Assembly: GCA_026391915.1 (NCBI GenBank)
Contig: JAPLCZ010000257.1
Span: forward strand, 5,691 to 69,690
DNA: 64,000 bases
Direction: 5' to 3'
From: Bacteroidota bacterium
GTDB lineage: Bacteria; Bacteroidota; Bacteroidia; CAILMK01
A program made the translations under genes and the position numbers. Below the pieces are notes generated by a model, which had not been told where the DNA came from, searched no databases, and saw only the letters and a program-made list of their open reading frames with translations. Below are positions 18,234 to 62,872 of the stretch, piece by piece. The stretch's first letter is position 1. Every line of letters begins with the position of its first letter.

Positions 18234-18312
18234 AACTCAATATATAGCCAATAAAAAAATCCCATTCTGAAATTTCAGAATGGGATTTTTAGTTTATGAG
18301 AAGTTTGAATTT

Positions 18313-24132: not shown

Positions 24133-24192
24133 AAGTAAATCTATAACTTTATGGCAATATTACGCAGGAGGATTTTAACCTTGCGGTTTTAT

Positions 24193-24623
24193 ATGAGACC
24201 ACTCAAAAAATATAATTTCCCCGAAGCCCTTCAAAAGCTTAGAAAGTACTGCGCATATCAGGAACGCTGCCACCAAGAAGTGCGTAAAAAACTCGCAGAA
24301 TGGGGGTTTGATAATGAGGATAAGGACAAAATTATTGTGCAATTGATGGAGGAAGGTTTTCTAAATGAGGAACGATATGCAAAGGCAATCGTCAGAGGAA
24401 AGTTAAGGCAGAAAGGCTTAACTCTTCGTTGAAAGAGATTGACGATGATTTTTACTTGGAAACCCTTGTAAGAATATTGGAGAAAAAGCGAACTCTCCTA
24501 ACGAAGAATGAGGCACCTTTGACCATAAAAAGTAAGCTCTCAAAATACGCCTTAGGTAAGGGGTACAATTGGGAGATTATTTCAGAGGCATTTATTAAAA
24601 TTGAACTTGATAAAAGTCGTTAA
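24193..24623 (+). CDS. recX: RecX regulatory protein, reading frame broken by a frameshift near 24425-24432
   Basis: ALQKLRKYCAYQERCHQEVRKKLAEWGF matches the RecX N-terminal repeat. The ORF stops at LRQKGLTLR* and continues in another frame (KEIDDDFYLETL...), so a 1-nt indel is implied. Confidence 0.6.
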
Positions 24624-55715: not shown

Positions 55716-55742
55716 AAAAGATATTTAAGATTTATATAAAAA

Positions 55743-55778
55743 GGGAAGCCCCGCATAATTGCGGGGCTTCCCTTTTTT
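55743..55778. terminator. Bidirectional intrinsic terminator
   Basis: GGGAAGCCCCGC-ataatt-GCGGGGCTTCCC (12-bp perfect stem) flanked by A-run upstream and T-run downstream. Serves the small + ORF and the convergent 55799-56377 gene. Confidence 0.8.
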
Positions 55779-57130: not shown

Positions 57131-57192
57131 TTAGTTCAGGTTAGATTTTTTATTGGCAACCCGCTTATGATTATTTGTAAGCGGGTTTTTAA

Positions 57193-60141
57193 TTAACTGA
57201 TTTCCCTATCCACCGTATCTAATCTTTTCATGTGTTCCACCTCAATAGTTGTGAAGTCATATTCTTCTACAACTTTCCCTCTTAGCACGTAACAGCCTGG
57301 GCCAATGAAGGGGTATTGCTTGGCAGAATCAGGGAAGTGAACAGTGTCAATCCAATCGCCTTCGGTATCTATAAAAGTACCGAAATGCATGCGTTCTCCT
57401 TTGGAGGTTTGGGTGTTTTTGGTAGTGACCAAATACCCTACAATAGTCACTTTTTTATTCAGGTGTTTCTTTAATTCGGATACTTTTAAGGTGGCAGGTA
57501 ACTTCTCTTTTAGCAAATCAAAAGGAGAACAAAGAGGGAATCCAAAGAGCTCTATCTGGTCAAATGCTTCATCAATTTTTGAATCGGAAAGGGTGGGGAG
57601 TTTCCAGGATTTTGTAGGAGTTTCAAACAATTGCTTGGTGGGCTTTTTAGTTTTGGTAGGCTGTAAAATGGAGTAGATTTCCCAAAGTAATTCCTTCCGG
57701 TTTTTATTGGTGAAATTGAAAGCTCCTGCGCGGATGAGTAAGCGTATTTGTTCTATAGAAATGGGAATTCTTCTTACAAAATCATTCAGGCTTTCAAAGT
57801 CTCCATTCTGTTTTCTTTCTTCCAGAATTGGAGAGAGAATTTCATGCTCTAACTCCCCAATCATCCCTAAACCTAAATAAATTGTGTTGCCTTTTATGGT
57901 GCATAAACCATCACTATTATTAATGCATGGAGGTTTGATTTCTGCCCCTTGCATTCGGGCTTCGTGTATATAAAGCTCTTTACGGTAGAAGCCACCACCA
58001 TTGTTAAGTGTTGCCACCAAATACTCTAAAGGATAGTAGGCTTTCAGGAAAAGCGCCTGATAACTTTCCACCGCATAAGAAGCAGAATGTCCTTTTGAAA
58101 AAGCAAAATTGGCGAAGCTTTCTATCTGAGTCCAGATGTCCAGAATTAACTTTTCATCATGACCTTTTTCTCTGCAATTGTTAAAAAACTTTTCCCTCAC
58201 CAATTCAAATTCGTTTCGCTTTTTGAATTTCCAGCTCATGCCTCTTCTTAAATAATCAGCCTCTGCCAAACTGAGCCTTGCGAAGAAGTGCGCTATCTTT
58301 ATCACATCCTCCTGATATACCATTACACCATAAGTTTCTTCCAACAAATCATACAATTCTGGCAGTTGCTTTCTTGCTTTTTCGCGCAGTTTTTCATCAC
58401 GAAAACGGATGATATATTCCCGCATCATTCCACTCTTAGCAACACCGGGGCGAATGATAGAAGAAGCAGCCACTAACCTCAAATAATCATCAGCTTTTAG
58501 TTTGGCAAGTAGCATACGCATGGCAGGAGACTCCACATAAAAACAGCCTATGGTATTACCCACCCGCAGCAGTGCTTTTACCTTTTCATCCTGCATAAAT
58601 TTTTTGGTATCATGGATGTCAATATCAACCTCCTTATTGTCTTTAACAATTGTTAGGGTATCCTTAATTTTACCCAATCCACGCTGACTCAAAATATCAA
58701 ATTTATAGAGCCCAATATCTTCTGCTTCTAACATGCTGAATTGTGTAGTTGGATAACCCTTTGGCGGCATGCTGGTTGCCGAATAATAATGAATAGGTTG
58801 TTCTGAAATGATAATACCGCTGGAGTGGATACTTAAGTGACTTGGAAACCCCTTTATCAATTGAGAATATCGTAAAACAAGCTTTCCCATATCATCAATA
58901 TCGGGGTAGCGGTGTGCCTGTTGGAGCTTATCAATTTCACTAGGAGGCAAGCCAAAAACTTTACCCAACTCACGGGTTACAGCATCATGCTGAAAGGTGT
59001 TGTAAGCACCCAATAATGCAGTGCGCTGAGAGCTGAATCTTTTAAAAATATAGTTGGTTATGTCATCCCTGTCTGTCCACGAAAAATCCATGTCAAAGTC
59101 AGGCGCATTGTTACGGTGTAGGTTGATAAATCTCTCAAAATATAAATCCAATTCTATGGGGTCAACATCCGTAATCCGCAGCAGATATGCAACTATGCTG
59201 TTAGCCCCACTTCCCCTCCCCACATAATAATAATTTTTGTGCTGGGCATAGTTGATAATATCCCAGTTAATTAAAAAATATGATGAGAAATTCAGTTGGG
59301 TAATTACCTCCAATTCCTTTTCCACCCGCTGCAAAACATCTGGACTTGGATTAGGGTAACGATAAAGCAAACCATTCATACATTCCTGCCTTAGCACGGC
59401 TGCATCATCTTCAATACTTTGGGTGTAATGCTTTAGATTTTTATTGGCAAGCTTCCCATATTCAAAATTTATTGAGCAATTATTTAATATGTTTTTTGTA
59501 TTGGAAATAATATTCGAGAACTCTGCAAAAGCCAAATCCATTTCAGATTTGGAAGGCATAATTTCCGTGCCTTTGGCTTGCTGTTCCAATGGCAGTTTGC
59601 TAAGGAGATTATTGGTATCAATTGCCCGCAATAATCGGTGTGCATTAAACTGAAGTTTGCTAGCAAAAGAAACCGATTGCAAAGCCACCAATTTGTCCTT
59701 TGGTAAATTTATTTTAGAGAATTGCAGGCTTTGTAAATCATTCATTCCTACTCCTACAAATTCATTTTCTCTGAGCTGCCAACCCTTATATGTACTCAGC
59801 GGATAGACTGTATAGGCGTGATTAAACTCACACGCTTTTGCATTAAATTTTTGTGAAGAATGCAGATGAGTAGAGAGGTGTTCATTGAGTTCTTTAAAGC
59901 CCTCATTATTCATGGCAATTCCCACATATTGCTGCTGTGCATCATTGCGAAAATCAATTCCAACAATGGGCTTTAATCCTCTCTCATTCGCCTGACGAAT
60001 AGTGTCTAAAACCGCAGAAGTATTATTGATATCAGTAAGTACAAATTCCGAAAATCCATTGCGCTGCACTTCATCCAACAACCCCTCAATGGAGAAAGTT
60101 CCGTAACAAAAACTATAGTAGGTGTGGCAGTTGAGGAGCAT
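57193..60141 (-). CDS. dnaE2: Error-prone DNA polymerase III alpha-subunit paralog (DnaE2/ImuC-type)
   Basis: N-terminal PHP domain (LNCHTYYSF...VLTDINN). Pol III alpha core (GRGSGANSIVAYLLRITDVDPIELDLYFERFIN...PDFDMDF). 982 aa, shorter than replicative DnaE. Confidence 0.8.
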   Translation of the reverse strand: MLLNCHTYYSFCYGTFSIEGLLDEVQRNGFSEFVLTDINNTSAVLDTIRQANERGLKPIVGIDFRNDAQQQYVGIAMNNEGFKELNEHLSTHLHSSQKFNAKACEFNHAYTVYPLSTYKGWQLRENEFVGVGMNDLQSLQFSKINLPKDKLVALQSVSFASKLQFNAHRLLRAIDTNNLLSKLPLEQQAKGTEIMPSKSEMDLAFAEFSNIISNTKNILNNCSINFEYGKLANKNLKHYTQSIEDDAAVLRQECMNGLLYRYPNPSPDVLQRVEKELEVITQLNFSSYFLINWDIINYAQHKNYYYVGRGSGANSIVAYLLRITDVDPIELDLYFERFINLHRNNAPDFDMDFSWTDRDDITNYIFKRFSSQRTALLGAYNTFQHDAVTRELGKVFGLPPSEIDKLQQAHRYPDIDDMGKLVLRYSQLIKGFPSHLSIHSSGIIISEQPIHYYSATSMPPKGYPTTQFSMLEAEDIGLYKFDILSQRGLGKIKDTLTIVKDNKEVDIDIHDTKKFMQDEKVKALLRVGNTIGCFYVESPAMRMLLAKLKADDYLRLVAASSIIRPGVAKSGMMREYIIRFRDEKLREKARKQLPELYDLLEETYGVMVYQEDVIKIAHFFARLSLAEADYLRRGMSWKFKKRNEFELVREKFFNNCREKGHDEKLILDIWTQIESFANFAFSKGHSASYAVESYQALFLKAYYPLEYLVATLNNGGGFYRKELYIHEARMQGAEIKPPCINNSDGLCTIKGNTIYLGLGMIGELEHEILSPILEERKQNGDFESLNDFVRRIPISIEQIRLLIRAGAFNFTNKNRKELLWEIYSILQPTKTKKPTKQLFETPTKSWKLPTLSDSKIDEAFDQIELFGFPLCSPFDLLKEKLPATLKVSELKKHLNKKVTIVGYLVTTKNTQTSKGERMHFGTFIDTEGDWIDTVHFPDSAKQYPFIGPGCYVLRGKVVEEYDFTTIEVEHMKRLDTVDREIS

Positions 60142-60297
60142 GGTTGCCTTGGATTAGGTTAGAAAATTTTTTCGCCACAGATTATTGAAACTATTTTTAT
60201 TTTTTAATTTGGAATCAATCAACTTCGGTTCACAGATTAAATGAAAGATAAAATTGATCTGTGGCAGTGATTATTTATAGCTGAGTTAATGGCGAAT

Positions 60298-61497
60298 TCA
60301 AATCTTCCCAGCCCCAATCTTTAGCCCATTAAAAGCATTGAAATCATGCTGCTTAAAACTTACACCGGCGGCTCTGTTTACGGCGTCTTTTCCGTAGCGG
60401 CTTCGGATTTTATCCATGGCTTCGCAGAGTTGTATTTGCGCTGTGTTTTCTTCAAACAAATTATACTGATGCCCCCCATGCACCAGATGGCTGAACTTAA
60501 TCCCAACCAGCCTAATCAGCATTCGTTTTTGGTAGAGTTTATTAAAGAGTTCGTTTACTTTTTCCATGAGCACATGGTCAAGAGAAGTGTAGGGAATCCG
60601 TGCCTGCATGGTAAAAGTATTGAAATCCGAATAGCGGATTTTTACCGTTACGCAAGCCGTGAGTTTGTGCTCAGACCGCAACTGAAAAGCAAGCTTCTCC
60701 GTCATCCCAATCAGCAAACCTTTTAGTGCTTTTACATCAATGGTGTCCTTATCAAAAGTGCGCTCTGTGGAGATAGATTTCCTCTCAGAATACGGCACCA
60801 CTGCCGAGTTATCAATGCCATTGGCTTTGCGCCAAATCATACCACCATTTTCACCCAGCACACCTTCCATCAGTTCGCAGGGCATTTCCTGCAAAGTCCT
60901 AATCCACATCACCCCCATGCTGCGCAGGAGGCTATAAGTTTTTTCACCTACCATGGGTATTTTGCGGATGGAAAGCGGTGCCAAAAATCCTTTCTCTGTA
61001 CCAAACGGAATCTCTTTTTGTCCGTTGGGTTTGGCTTCTCCCGTCCCAACTTTTGATACCGTTTTATTGGTGGATAGCGCAAAAGAAATTGGCAAATTAG
61101 TTTCCTTCATAATCTTCTGCCGCACTTCTGTAGCCAGTTTGTAGCAGCCAAAAAATTTGTCCATCCCCGTGAGGTCAATATAAAATTCGTCAATAGAGGT
61201 TTTCTCATACAAGGGTACTTCGCCACCAATAATTTCGGTGACCATATCAGAGTATTTTCCATATTGCCCCATATCACCTTTTACAATTATTGCCTCGGGG
61301 CAAAGCTGCCTCGCCATACGCATGGGCATGGCGGAGTGGATGCCAAAAGCCCGCGCCTCATAGCTGCAAGATGCCACCACACCGCGGTCACTAGTGCCAC
61401 CCACCAGCACAGGCTTACCTATAAGTTTGGGGTTAGCCAATCTTTCCACACTCACAAAAAAGGAATCTAAATCAATATGTACAATCTGGCGCTGCAT
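60298..61497 (-). CDS. dinB: Y-family DNA polymerase (DinB/ImuB-like) with intact catalytic motifs
   Basis: VHIDLDSFFVSVE and SIDEFYIDLTG (catalytic Asp/Glu present). SYEARAFGIHSAMP. 399 aa. Immediately upstream of dnaE2 on the same strand. Confidence 0.8.
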   Translation of the reverse strand: MQRQIVHIDLDSFFVSVERLANPKLIGKPVLVGGTSDRGVVASCSYEARAFGIHSAMPMRMARQLCPEAIIVKGDMGQYGKYSDMVTEIIGGEVPLYEKTSIDEFYIDLTGMDKFFGCYKLATEVRQKIMKETNLPISFALSTNKTVSKVGTGEAKPNGQKEIPFGTEKGFLAPLSIRKIPMVGEKTYSLLRSMGVMWIRTLQEMPCELMEGVLGENGGMIWRKANGIDNSAVVPYSERKSISTERTFDKDTIDVKALKGLLIGMTEKLAFQLRSEHKLTACVTVKIRYSDFNTFTMQARIPYTSLDHVLMEKVNELFNKLYQKRMLIRLVGIKFSHLVHGGHQYNLFEENTAQIQLCEAMDKIRSRYGKDAVNRAAGVSFKQHDFNAFNGLKIGAGKI

Positions 61498-61724
61498 AGC
61501 GGGTTTTAAAGAACCCGAAATCTACTAAGAATTTTTGGGATAATAAAAAACATGACGGTTATAATGCCATGGATGTAGACAATAGTCCGTTGTGTGAAAG
61601 TCAACATCCTTCCACCTTTGGACAATGGATATCTAAAAAGTATTTGGAGAAAGACTTAGAAAATTGAGACTTGAAAAGGGATTGTCTCAAGAAGGACTAG
61701 CCTCTTCGGCAGAAGCTGCTCTCC

Positions 61725-61847
61725 TGAATGTTCCGAAGGGCATTTGGGAGAGTAGATAGTTTAGGTTCACCAGAACCGTTTTTGTCGGGTTAAAAACCCT
61801 CTTTTATCTATCCTCCCGAATGCGCTACGCTAACATTCGGGAGAGCT
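61725..61847. promoter_or_regulatory. Two related 10-bp-stem hairpins CTCC(T/C)GAATG-N10-11-CATT(T/C)GGGAG, 87 bp apart, plus GGGTT-aaaa-AACCC hairpin
   Basis: Hairpin positions 61725-61756 and 61814-61844. The second abuts the mrr stop codon, so it is a terminator candidate. Both lie upstream of the dinB-dnaE2 operon. Confidence 0.4.
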
Positions 61848-61850
61848 AAG

Positions 61851-62780
61851 TTAGTCATTGCTTCCTAAAAAGTATATTGAATGTAGTGGAAGCATATTCT
61901 TGTCATCATCTGTCATTTTATTATAAAATTCCTGCCATAGGTCAATAAAATTATCGATGTCTAAAAGTTTGATATGCCTATGACTTTCTCTTGCGGAACG
62001 TTCTGCCTCAGAAGTGAATGTTCCTGATGTTACAAATAACCCTATGTCGCCATCTTTGTTTAGAAGACCTGTTAGGCTTCTGATGTCATCTACTGGAACA
62101 GATGCGTCTGGTCTATGTTTTACTTGAACTTTTAGTCTTGGAGCAGTTGCACCAAGTGGGTCGTTGTAAGCAACTATGTCCAAACCACCATCTTTACCTT
62201 TTGGCGAGATGAAAGGAGTGTGATATTTCATTGCCCTCAATAAAGCTGCAACTAAATCTTGAAACTCATAAGCATTTTTACTTCTTATAAAATCTTTTAT
62301 TCCAGAAATGGCTTGTTCCTCAAGTAAATCAAGGTTCGCTTTTTGGGTTTGTGTTTTATTCTCTTCGAGTTCAGTCGGTTCGTCTTCTGTGCTTTTCCCT
62401 TTTTTAAGTTTTGTGTCTTTGTTGTCGGCTGCCCAAGTTCGATAAAGTTGAGAAGCAGTCTCAAGCAGTTTGGTAGGTCCAAGATTTATAGCCTTTTCGC
62501 CTTCTTCTGTTAAATACCATACGCCTTTATTTTTTCTTAAAAATCCCGCTTTAATTCCATCTATTGTATAGAAATGTAATAATGATTCCCACCTTACATA
62601 GCCAGTCTTTTCATATACTAGCTTTTCCCATTCAGTAAGTTCAATTGTCTCACGAATTTTATCAATTACTTGCTTTCCAGGAAGCTGTCCACCAGCATCC
62701 TTCAATATCTTAAAAGCCGCAAACATAGTCTTGGCAGCAGACTGTTTTGAGGGAGCTAATTTTTCTAGTTCTTTATCCAT
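61851..62780 (-). CDS. mrr: Mrr-family restriction endonuclease (N-terminal winged-helix plus Mrr_cat domain)
   Basis: FQDLVAALLRAMKY...GGLDIVAY...LKVQVKHR...GLFVTSGTFTSEA matches the Mrr catalytic-core pattern. 309 aa. Confidence 0.75.
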   Translation of the reverse strand: MDKELEKLAPSKQSAAKTMFAAFKILKDAGGQLPGKQVIDKIRETIELTEWEKLVYEKTGYVRWESLLHFYTIDGIKAGFLRKNKGVWYLTEEGEKAINLGPTKLLETASQLYRTWAADNKDTKLKKGKSTEDEPTELEENKTQTQKANLDLLEEQAISGIKDFIRSKNAYEFQDLVAALLRAMKYHTPFISPKGKDGGLDIVAYNDPLGATAPRLKVQVKHRPDASVPVDDIRSLTGLLNKDGDIGLFVTSGTFTSEAERSARESHRHIKLLDIDNFIDLWQEFYNKMTDDDKNMLPLHSIYFLGSND

Positions 62781-62872
62781 TGTCTTTGTGTTGTCTTGTT
62801 GTTTTTAATGTGAGTGTTAACTCATTTAATTAGGAAGATTTGGGTTTTCAAAACTACCTTTTATTTTTTTAA

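Follow-up and report, generated by a model that had tools for sequence, protein, structure and literature searches.

The 64-kb stretch of Bacteroidota DNA analysed here (hereafter the window) carries an operon of two translesion polymerase genes, dinB and dnaE2, whose upstream region no longer shows the LexA module that is common among its relatives. In the place of that module lie an intact mrr gene for a type IV restriction endonuclease, a 131-nt palindrome, and the 5′ stump of a restriction-modification (R-M) controller (C) gene together with its operator. The operon is an ordinary example of the PolY2-DnaE2 translesion-synthesis type published for Bacteroidota, and the missing lexA module, not the missing imuA gene, is the real oddity of the locus. 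We are highly confident in the identities of all the parts. We also consider it probable that the best overall explanation combines these identities with a replacement of the LexA module by R-M wreckage. For the regulatory consequence, a lost or weakened SOS control, we would put the chances at about even. The features concerned are the following.

57193-60141, minus strand: DnaE2-type DNA polymerase III alpha homologue, short, 982 amino acids; Pfam PHP, DNA_pol3_alpha, DNA_pol3_finger and HHH_6
60142-60297, minus strand: dinB-dnaE2 spacer, 156 nt, with inverted and direct CACAGAT repeats
60298-61497, minus strand: Pol IV-type Y-family polymerase (dinB), 399 amino acids; Pfam IMS and IMS_C
61517-61537, minus strand: candidate residual core promoter, made of a -7-like TAGATTTC (61517-61524) and CAAAAATTCTTAG (61525-61537)
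61573-61607, plus strand: C-box operator (OL and OR), 35 bp, an ungapped match to the C.Esp1396I operator
61625-61702, plus strand: C-protein pseudogene, first 26 codons, with TAA at codon 4 (61634-61636)
61716-61846, no strand assigned: composite palindrome, 131 nt; arm L (hairpin 2) 61716-61758, arm R (hairpin 1) 61805-61846
61851-62780, minus strand: intact gene for an Mrr type IV restriction endonuclease; Pfam Mrr_N and Mrr_cat

The LexA module in relatives and its absence from the window

Related loci were collected by a genome scan with the Y-family polymerase, which gave 80 loci in Bacteroidota metagenome-assembled genomes (MAGs) at 65-85% identity, and by metagenome look-ups, which gave 5 more at 86-87%. 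Of these 85 loci, 41 had a DinB identity of at least 75% and were treated as the close set. Upstream of dinB, 43 of the 80 genome-scan loci carry a divergent gene of 252-258 amino acids that encodes helix-turn-helix (HTH; HTH_3/HTH_19) and Peptidase_S24 domains. In 30 of the 41 close loci, including all five of the closest (86-87%), such a gene is no more than 450 bp away from dinB. Non-canonical LexA proteins of Bacteroidetes consist of a CI-like HTH and an S24 domain, bind CTAA-N5-TTAG or GGA-N5-TCC, and include dinB-dnaE2 operons in their regulon (Sanchez-Osuna et al. 2021, PMC8565304); the motif and regulon of the relatives agree with that report. The intergenic layout between lexA and dinB is typically CAT-tg-CTAAAATAyTTAG-N10-CTAAATTAAATAG-TAATTTTG, with two tandem boxes, the second of which abuts the Bacteroidetes -7 element TAATTTTG. 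According to a position weight matrix (PWM) built from 22 distinct sites, real boxes in the relatives score 17.7-25.7 bits, and a box of at least 15 bits was present in 29 of the 41 close loci. Loci that lack an adjacent lexA usually keep the boxes or carry a CTAC-N5-GTAG variant.

The variant was seen as (A/G)CTACAAnnnGTAGC at 50-75 bp upstream of dinB in seven loci without adjacent lexA (L019, L039, L046, L049, L050, L055, L077), where it precedes a TAGTAAnTT -7-like element. It looks like a CTAA-N5-TTAG LexA box that has diverged. Neither CTAC nor GTAG appears as a string in the main text of PMC8565304. Within the window, all five exact CTAC-N5-GTAG matches fall inside one giant open reading frame (ORF) of 6776 amino acids (24863-45193, plus strand). 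Eight further loci (L009, L023, L052, L053, L056, L059, L061, L074) carry a second divergent HTH-S24 type of 265-286 amino acids, 37-42% identical to the common type, and there other palindromes, for example TTGTTATAATTGATAACAA or GATACTATAAGTATC, replace CTAA-N5-TTAG.

Whereas the relatives have a divergent HTH-S24 repressor gene and CTAA-N5-TTAG boxes, the window has neither a repressor gene nor a credible box. A tblastn search with the LexA-like proteins of the relatives found no LexA-like ORF anywhere in the 64 kb, which confirms an earlier annotation made from the letters alone (the sequence-only reading) in its statement that the adjacent regulator is missing. Upstream DNA homology to the relatives ends at the dinB ATG. 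In the 350 bp upstream of dinB there was no exact match to GGA-N5-TCC, CTAA-N5-TTAG or CTAC-N5-GTAG, and no dyad-N5-dyad palindrome was found within 250 bp of the gene; the top PWM score in the whole window was 11.3 bits. A recognisable LexA box is absent at this dinB. The best upstream candidate is CAAAAATTCTTAG, one mismatch away from CTAA-N5-TTAG, which scores 4.8-4.9 bits and ranks 25th in the window. It abuts the -7-like TAGATTTC, copying the layout of box 2 and TAATTTTG in the relatives.

A truncated R-M controller gene

Upstream of dinB, the sequence-only reading had noticed an HTH-like frame on the plus strand (61637-61756, KVFGERLRKLRLEKGLSQEGLA...), and it proposed a decayed LexA/CI-type repressor gene without an in-frame start. 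The decay is real, but the repressor identity did not hold, and an in-frame ATG does exist at 61625. The gene starts ATG GAT ATC TAA (61625-61636), followed by AAA GTA TTT GGA..., and translates as M D I stop K V F G E R L R K L R L E K G L S Q E G L A. Pfam gives weak matches to HTH_31 (E = 4e-4) and HTH_19 (2e-3). When the repaired peptide was compared with 5.8 billion proteins, three matches only were obtained, all of them stand-alone XRE proteins of 69-76 amino acids. The nearest two, P0121 and P0122, are 62-65% identical to the remnant over 37 amino acids and begin (MP)MDIKKKFG..LR.LRLEKGLSQE.LA. The closest full-length relatives of the remnant are proteins of 69-70 amino acids. Since these homologues start with MDIKKKFG, the TAA at codon 4 corresponds to a replaced Lys codon.

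The surroundings of the homologues are those of R-M systems. In one context the gene lies directly upstream of a type II endonuclease gene (RE_Alw26IDE) and beside a GmrSD gene, in the order controller-restriction endonuclease; in a second it precedes a Vsr/DNA-methylase and RE_HpaII system, in the order controller-methyltransferase-restriction endonuclease. Among solved structures, P0121 and P0122 match C.BclI (2e-17), C.AhdI (3e-15) and also C.Esp1396I, and the remnant alone ranks C.BclI (1.3e-3) and C.AhdI first in the PDB. Homology is also evident at the nucleotide level, where 61570-61701 matches intact C-gene loci (E = 4e-10) and the similarity then stops. This segment includes an inverted repeat, GGATGTAGACAATAGTCCGTTGTGTGAAAGTCAACATCC, with arms at 61571-61580 and 61600-61609. 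The central 35 bp of the repeat, the C-box, agree without gaps at 24 of 35 positions with the C.Esp1396I operator ATGTGACTTATAGTCCGTGTGATTATAGTCAACAT, which has been defined by experiment; elsewhere in the window the agreement reaches at most 21. The C-box is homologous to DNA upstream of intact C genes in three loci (L101, L104, L106) and ends 17 nt upstream of the pseudogene ATG.

Because the nearest proteins, the PDB ranking and the C-box all point to controller genes, we assign the fragment, on homology grounds, as the 5′ stump of an R-M controller gene whose C-box is preserved; the gene breaks off at codon 26 and bears a nonsense codon. It is a pseudogene, since there is a TAA at codon 4, homology ends at codon 26, and what comes next is the palindrome and then the mrr 3′ end; its frame continues into the palindrome as far as a stop at 61757-61759. 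The N-terminus and the 35-bp two-site operator are shared with the R-M controller proteins and C-boxes of C.Esp1396I, C.AhdI, C.BclI and C.PvuII. In contrast to the intact homologues, which precede restriction endonuclease or methyltransferase genes, the window keeps 26 codons with no such gene after them.

A 32-amino-acid ORF at 61569-61667 (plus strand), called as a gene in a Logan contig (L001, 2908-3006), runs across the C-box and the pseudogene start in another frame, and is most likely an artefact of gene calling.

The palindrome and the adjacent mrr gene

Two related hairpins had been reported upstream of dinB, and both are present, as CTCCTGAATG..CATTTGGGAG (61721-61750) and CTCCCGAATG..CATTCGGGAG (61813-61843). 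They are not independent, however, but form the arms of a single 131-nt palindrome. The arms repeat a 42-nt unit in inverted orientation, at about 81% identity, and the 46-nt spacer between them contains two small T-tract hairpins on the plus strand (61764-61777 and 61787-61799). The folding energy of the 161-nt region is -64.8 kcal/mol (z = -7.0), and the favoured fold pairs the arms with each other. The palindrome exactly fills the gap between the end of the C-gene homology at 61701 and the end of the mrr homology at 61848. It lies upstream of dinB beyond the pseudogene, with 219-349 bp between its hairpins and the dinB ATG.

A search of the 64 kb for the hairpin motif gave the two known matches and no other (0 expected from 100 shuffles). 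The palindrome was not found in 81 loci searched, including the 80 genome-scan relatives. A metagenome scan gave 14 hairpins that share the stems only, in genomes of unrelated GC content, which is near the chance level estimated by hand. The Rfam database yielded only a sub-threshold match to a microRNA precursor, reflecting hairpin shape.

Several other identities were considered. The suggestion that the hairpins are candidate operators has no support, given their distance from dinB, their absence in the relatives, and their lack of resemblance to any known Bacteroidetes LexA box, whether CTAA-N5-TTAG or GGA-N5-TCC. A widespread family of repetitive extragenic palindromic (REP) sequences was rejected, with one copy in the window, none in the 81 loci, and metagenome matches to the stems only. 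On inspection, the R′ and R″ boxes of an integron attC site do not fit, nor does the position of the 5′ GTAG of a REP. The palindrome was also rejected as part of an mrr cassette, as the 3′ flanks of mrr homologues are without hairpins. The likeliest interpretation is a scar of the junction that would also act as an RNA-structure barrier behind mrr, and a solitary insertion resembling a miniature inverted-repeat transposable element (MITE) is less likely.

On the far side of the palindrome, mrr belongs to a horizontally shared block at approximately 61848-62821. Its protein homologues (L107-L113) are 80-94% identical and come from Ignavibacteria, Kapaibacterium, Chryseobacterium, Rufibacter and Tenuifilaceae; in L111 and L112 the gene adjoins a phage-type integrase. 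Such identity over distant lineages, together with integrase neighbours, indicates recent horizontal spread, and the GC composition shows no foreign block. In the contexts of the homologues, the nucleotide homology ends at the stop codon.

The picture of a defence-flavoured neighbourhood given by the sequence-only reading was correct, and the frameshift that it reported in recX also stands. That gene extends from 24151 to about 24700 (plus strand), with RecX_HTH1 and the start of HTH2 in the ORF 24151-24432 and RecX_HTH3 continuing in another frame. Its supposed adjacency does not stand, as recX is about 33 kb from the cassette.

The polymerase pair

The two polymerase genes were confirmed as described before: a dinB-like gene with intact catalytic motifs and a dnaE2 gene, both on the minus strand and 156 nt apart, rightly read as an error-prone polymerase pair. 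From the earlier label DinB/ImuB-like, the DinB part can be kept and the ImuB part cannot. The Y-family ORF carries the motifs HIDLDSFF and SIDEFY and scores 274.8 bits with the NCBIfam DNA polymerase IV equivalog NF002677, above the cutoff of 256. In the PDB it is closest to Pol IV 7yll (1e-61, end-to-end), with DxD and SIDE aligned. Because the Pol IV cutoff is passed and the catalytic motifs align with 7yll, the protein is predicted to be an active DinB/Pol IV-type enzyme rather than a catalytically dead ImuB. It has no ImuB-C domain; a clamp-binding-like QYNLF motif is followed by about 50 amino acids to the C-terminus. In this tail, LCEAMDKIRSRYGKDAVNRAAG looks by eye like residues 10-30 of RecA, and BLASTP against a hand-typed E. 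coli RecA N-terminus gave nothing significant. Homologues of the Y-family polymerase in Bacteroidota MAGs are 65-87% identical.

In DnaE2, the motifs PDFDMDF and KFD align with the catalytic aspartates of Taq Pol III alpha, and the Pfam match to the PHP domain is limited to its N-terminal part (residues 3-97). The ORF is above the cutoff of the NCBIfam polc/DnaE superfamily model and, with 458 bits, below that of the error-prone DnaE2 model NF004225 (939).

A putative mutasome variant of Bacteroidetes has been described in which PolY2 and DnaE2 are both apparently active and imuA is absent from operon and genome, RecA being proposed as the ImuA substitute via a RecA-NT-like motif that the tail of the Y-polymerase carries (Timinskas & Venclovas 2019, PMC6511836). 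Compared with this variant, for example in Cellulophaga algicola, the two genes of the window are essentially alike: an active-type Y-family gene upstream of and co-oriented with dnaE2, no imuA, no ImuB-C, a short DnaE2 with reduced PHP, and an origin in Bacteroidota. The differences are the absent linked lexA and operator, and a RecA-NT-like motif recognised by eye only. An orthologue of dnaE2, 52-77% identical, lies downstream of dinB in about 70 of the 85 related loci. Between the neighbours of the cassette in the relatives examined (lexA-like or unrelated genes upstream, dnaE2 downstream) there was no imuA-like gene, and neither an imuA-like nor an HTH-S24 gene stands beside the cassette of the window, no dedicated imuA search having been made in either case. 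Since a PolY2-DnaE2 pair without ImuA is published and is conserved in the related loci, the missing imuA, previously taken as an oddity, is the norm for this type and no anomaly.

The ImuA-ImuB-DnaE2 (ImuC) cassette of Proteobacteria and Actinobacteria likewise combines a Y-family homologue with a second copy of Pol III alpha, and presumably shares the function in damage tolerance and mutagenesis. It differs in that the window has no ImuA, a catalytically intact Y-family protein, and the tail of about 50 amino acids in place of ImuB-C. The window DnaE2, under the NCBIfam error-prone cutoff, fits the Bacteroidetes subgroup known to be short with a reduced core (PMC3919608).

The spacer between the two genes contains, at 60174-60265, a perfect 9-nt inverted repeat, GCCACAGAT/ATCTGTGGC, with its arms 74 nt apart, and also a direct repeat, CACAGATTA. 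In the relatives (L002-L081) it ranges from -14 to 3373 bp, i.e. from an overlap to 3.4 kb, and in L082 and L083 (7488-12118) the two polymerase genes are separated by an inserted HTH-pentapeptide gene and IS1595 transposase; the spacer therefore tolerates insertions. The cassette is flanked by Mrr upstream, with dUTPase beyond it, and by YceI downstream. The non-coding stretch upstream of dinB measures 353 bp (61498-61850). Directly before the dinB ATG, at 61478-61497, there is a stem CGGGTTCTTTAAAACCCG, which resembles GGGTTTTTAACCC (61787-61799) in the palindrome spacer and might occlude the dinB translation start.

Alternative explanations

The alternative that survives best takes the large hairpins as terminators or 3′-end stabilisers, hairpin 1 serving mrr and hairpin 2 a former C operon, so that dinB would be insulated from read-through. 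The mrr stop codon is followed 4 nt later by hairpin 1, the pairing of hairpin 2 is better in plus-strand RNA (two G-U pairs) than in minus-strand RNA (two A-C mismatches), and the mini-hairpins with T-tracts in the spacer are also on the plus strand. However, no T-tract flanks either large hairpin, while ordinary terminators of the window (57158-57187, 55738-55777, 18255-18290) have A-tract/T-tract flanks. A terminator scan flagged neither of the large hairpins, and only the stems at 61764-61777 and 61787-61799 (plus strand) and 61717-61699 (minus strand). The mrr homologues elsewhere also lack these hairpins. We regard this reading as tenable but doubtful.

A second alternative is that SOS control persists in trans, with a LexA-like repressor encoded elsewhere binding the degenerate CAAAAATTCTTAG, and with only the cis gene and box 1 lost. 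Six loci without adjacent lexA (L015, L027, L042, L044, L048, L054) keep their boxes, and the layout of the 13-mer with TAnnTTT equals that of box 2 with the -7 element in the relatives, in which a natural box 2 with one mismatch also occurs. Against this, CAAAAATTCTTAG reaches 4.8-4.9 bits where real sites have at least 17.7, no box 1 is found at the expected 23-nt offset, and substitutions in the dyad abolished LexA binding in electrophoretic mobility shift assays (PMC8565304). We thus consider trans control unlikely, and residual LexA binding at CAAAAATTCTTAG would be a weak possibility judged by the site itself. Some observations nevertheless weigh against our own interpretation of a lost module, and such residual binding is one of them. 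Diverged dyads are documented in the non-canonical LexA family (PMC8565304), CAAAAATTCTTAG abuts a -7-like box as box 2 does in the relatives, a match of its strength has only about a 5% chance in a 130-bp region, and a lexA-like gene with a diverged operator could lie outside the 64-kb window. On the side of the polymerases, the RecA-NT-like motif was recognised by eye, with a non-significant BLASTP.

A third alternative makes the palindrome a small non-autonomous mobile element, similar to a MITE or to a REP doublet forming a hairpin (REPIN), whose insertion truncated the controller gene. Its two inverted 42-nt units, each a hairpin, the fold at z = -7, and the exact fit between two unrelated homology blocks would be consistent with this. 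On the other hand, it occurs as a single copy in 64 kb and in none of the related loci searched, the 14 metagenome hairpins are unrelated stems at about the hand-estimated chance level, and it has no obvious target-site duplication and no 5′ GTAG as in REPs. An origin of this kind is quite improbable.

The model of a decayed LexA/CI-type SOS repressor with the two hairpins as operators or terminators is already largely refuted and has very little probability left: the fragment does lie divergently upstream of dinB, in the position and orientation of the LexA-like gene of the relatives, and its first helix shares by eye about 9 of 16 residues with MSKISKNIRHLRQLKKWSQEQLA, a generic XRE pattern, but a tblastn search with the fragment did not hit any lexA gene among the 80 genome-scan loci, the proteins closest to it are free-standing R-M controllers with a match that includes the N-terminal MDIKK, its DNA homology takes in the C-box with C.BclI and C.AhdI as best PDB matches, and the hairpins are neither shared with the relatives nor similar to their boxes. 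A chimeric MAG assembly at the junction of the defence genes and dinB, although suggested by the MAG origin and by flanks that are both non-syntenic with the 80 genome-scan loci, is hardly credible, because a separate Logan contig from SRR20698640 (L001) reproduces the junction with 100% identity over 521 bp and spans dut, mrr, palindrome, remnant, dinB and dnaE2, again 100% identical.

Proposed history and implications

The replacement of the LexA module by R-M wreckage, which we favour, would imply the following history. In the relatives, the operon is transcribed divergently from a non-canonical LexA gene, with boxes that overlap the -7 element, and is under SOS repression. In the lineage of the window, the LexA gene and its operator boxes would have gone, and a decayed defence islet would stand in their place, made up of a horizontally acquired mrr, the 131-nt palindrome, and a 26-codon C-gene stump with its C-box. 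The restriction and methylase genes once served by the controller would have been lost. The operon may now be driven by a weak residual promoter, with recognisable LexA control lost, or at most a weak, degenerate control in trans left. The palindrome would be either a scar left by recombination or an RNA structure that insulates dinB from mrr, and not an operator. The furthest-reaching version of this history, that turnover of the defence islet stripped off the cis-linked LexA repressor and both boxes, so that the Pol IV-like enzyme and DnaE2 are expressed outside SOS control, seems to us rather unlikely to hold in full.

As the cassette type and its control by LexA are already published, the main value of this analysis is corrective. 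The evolutionary point is that defence-gene traffic appears to have overwritten a lexA-dinB promoter region whose normal effect is to keep mutagenic polymerases tightly repressed. If the full version were true, the lineage would be in a natural mutator state, constitutive or differently wired, made by the flux of restriction systems beside the operon. If the operon has escaped SOS control, it would illustrate how a regulon contracts in nature, and mutator effects might follow.

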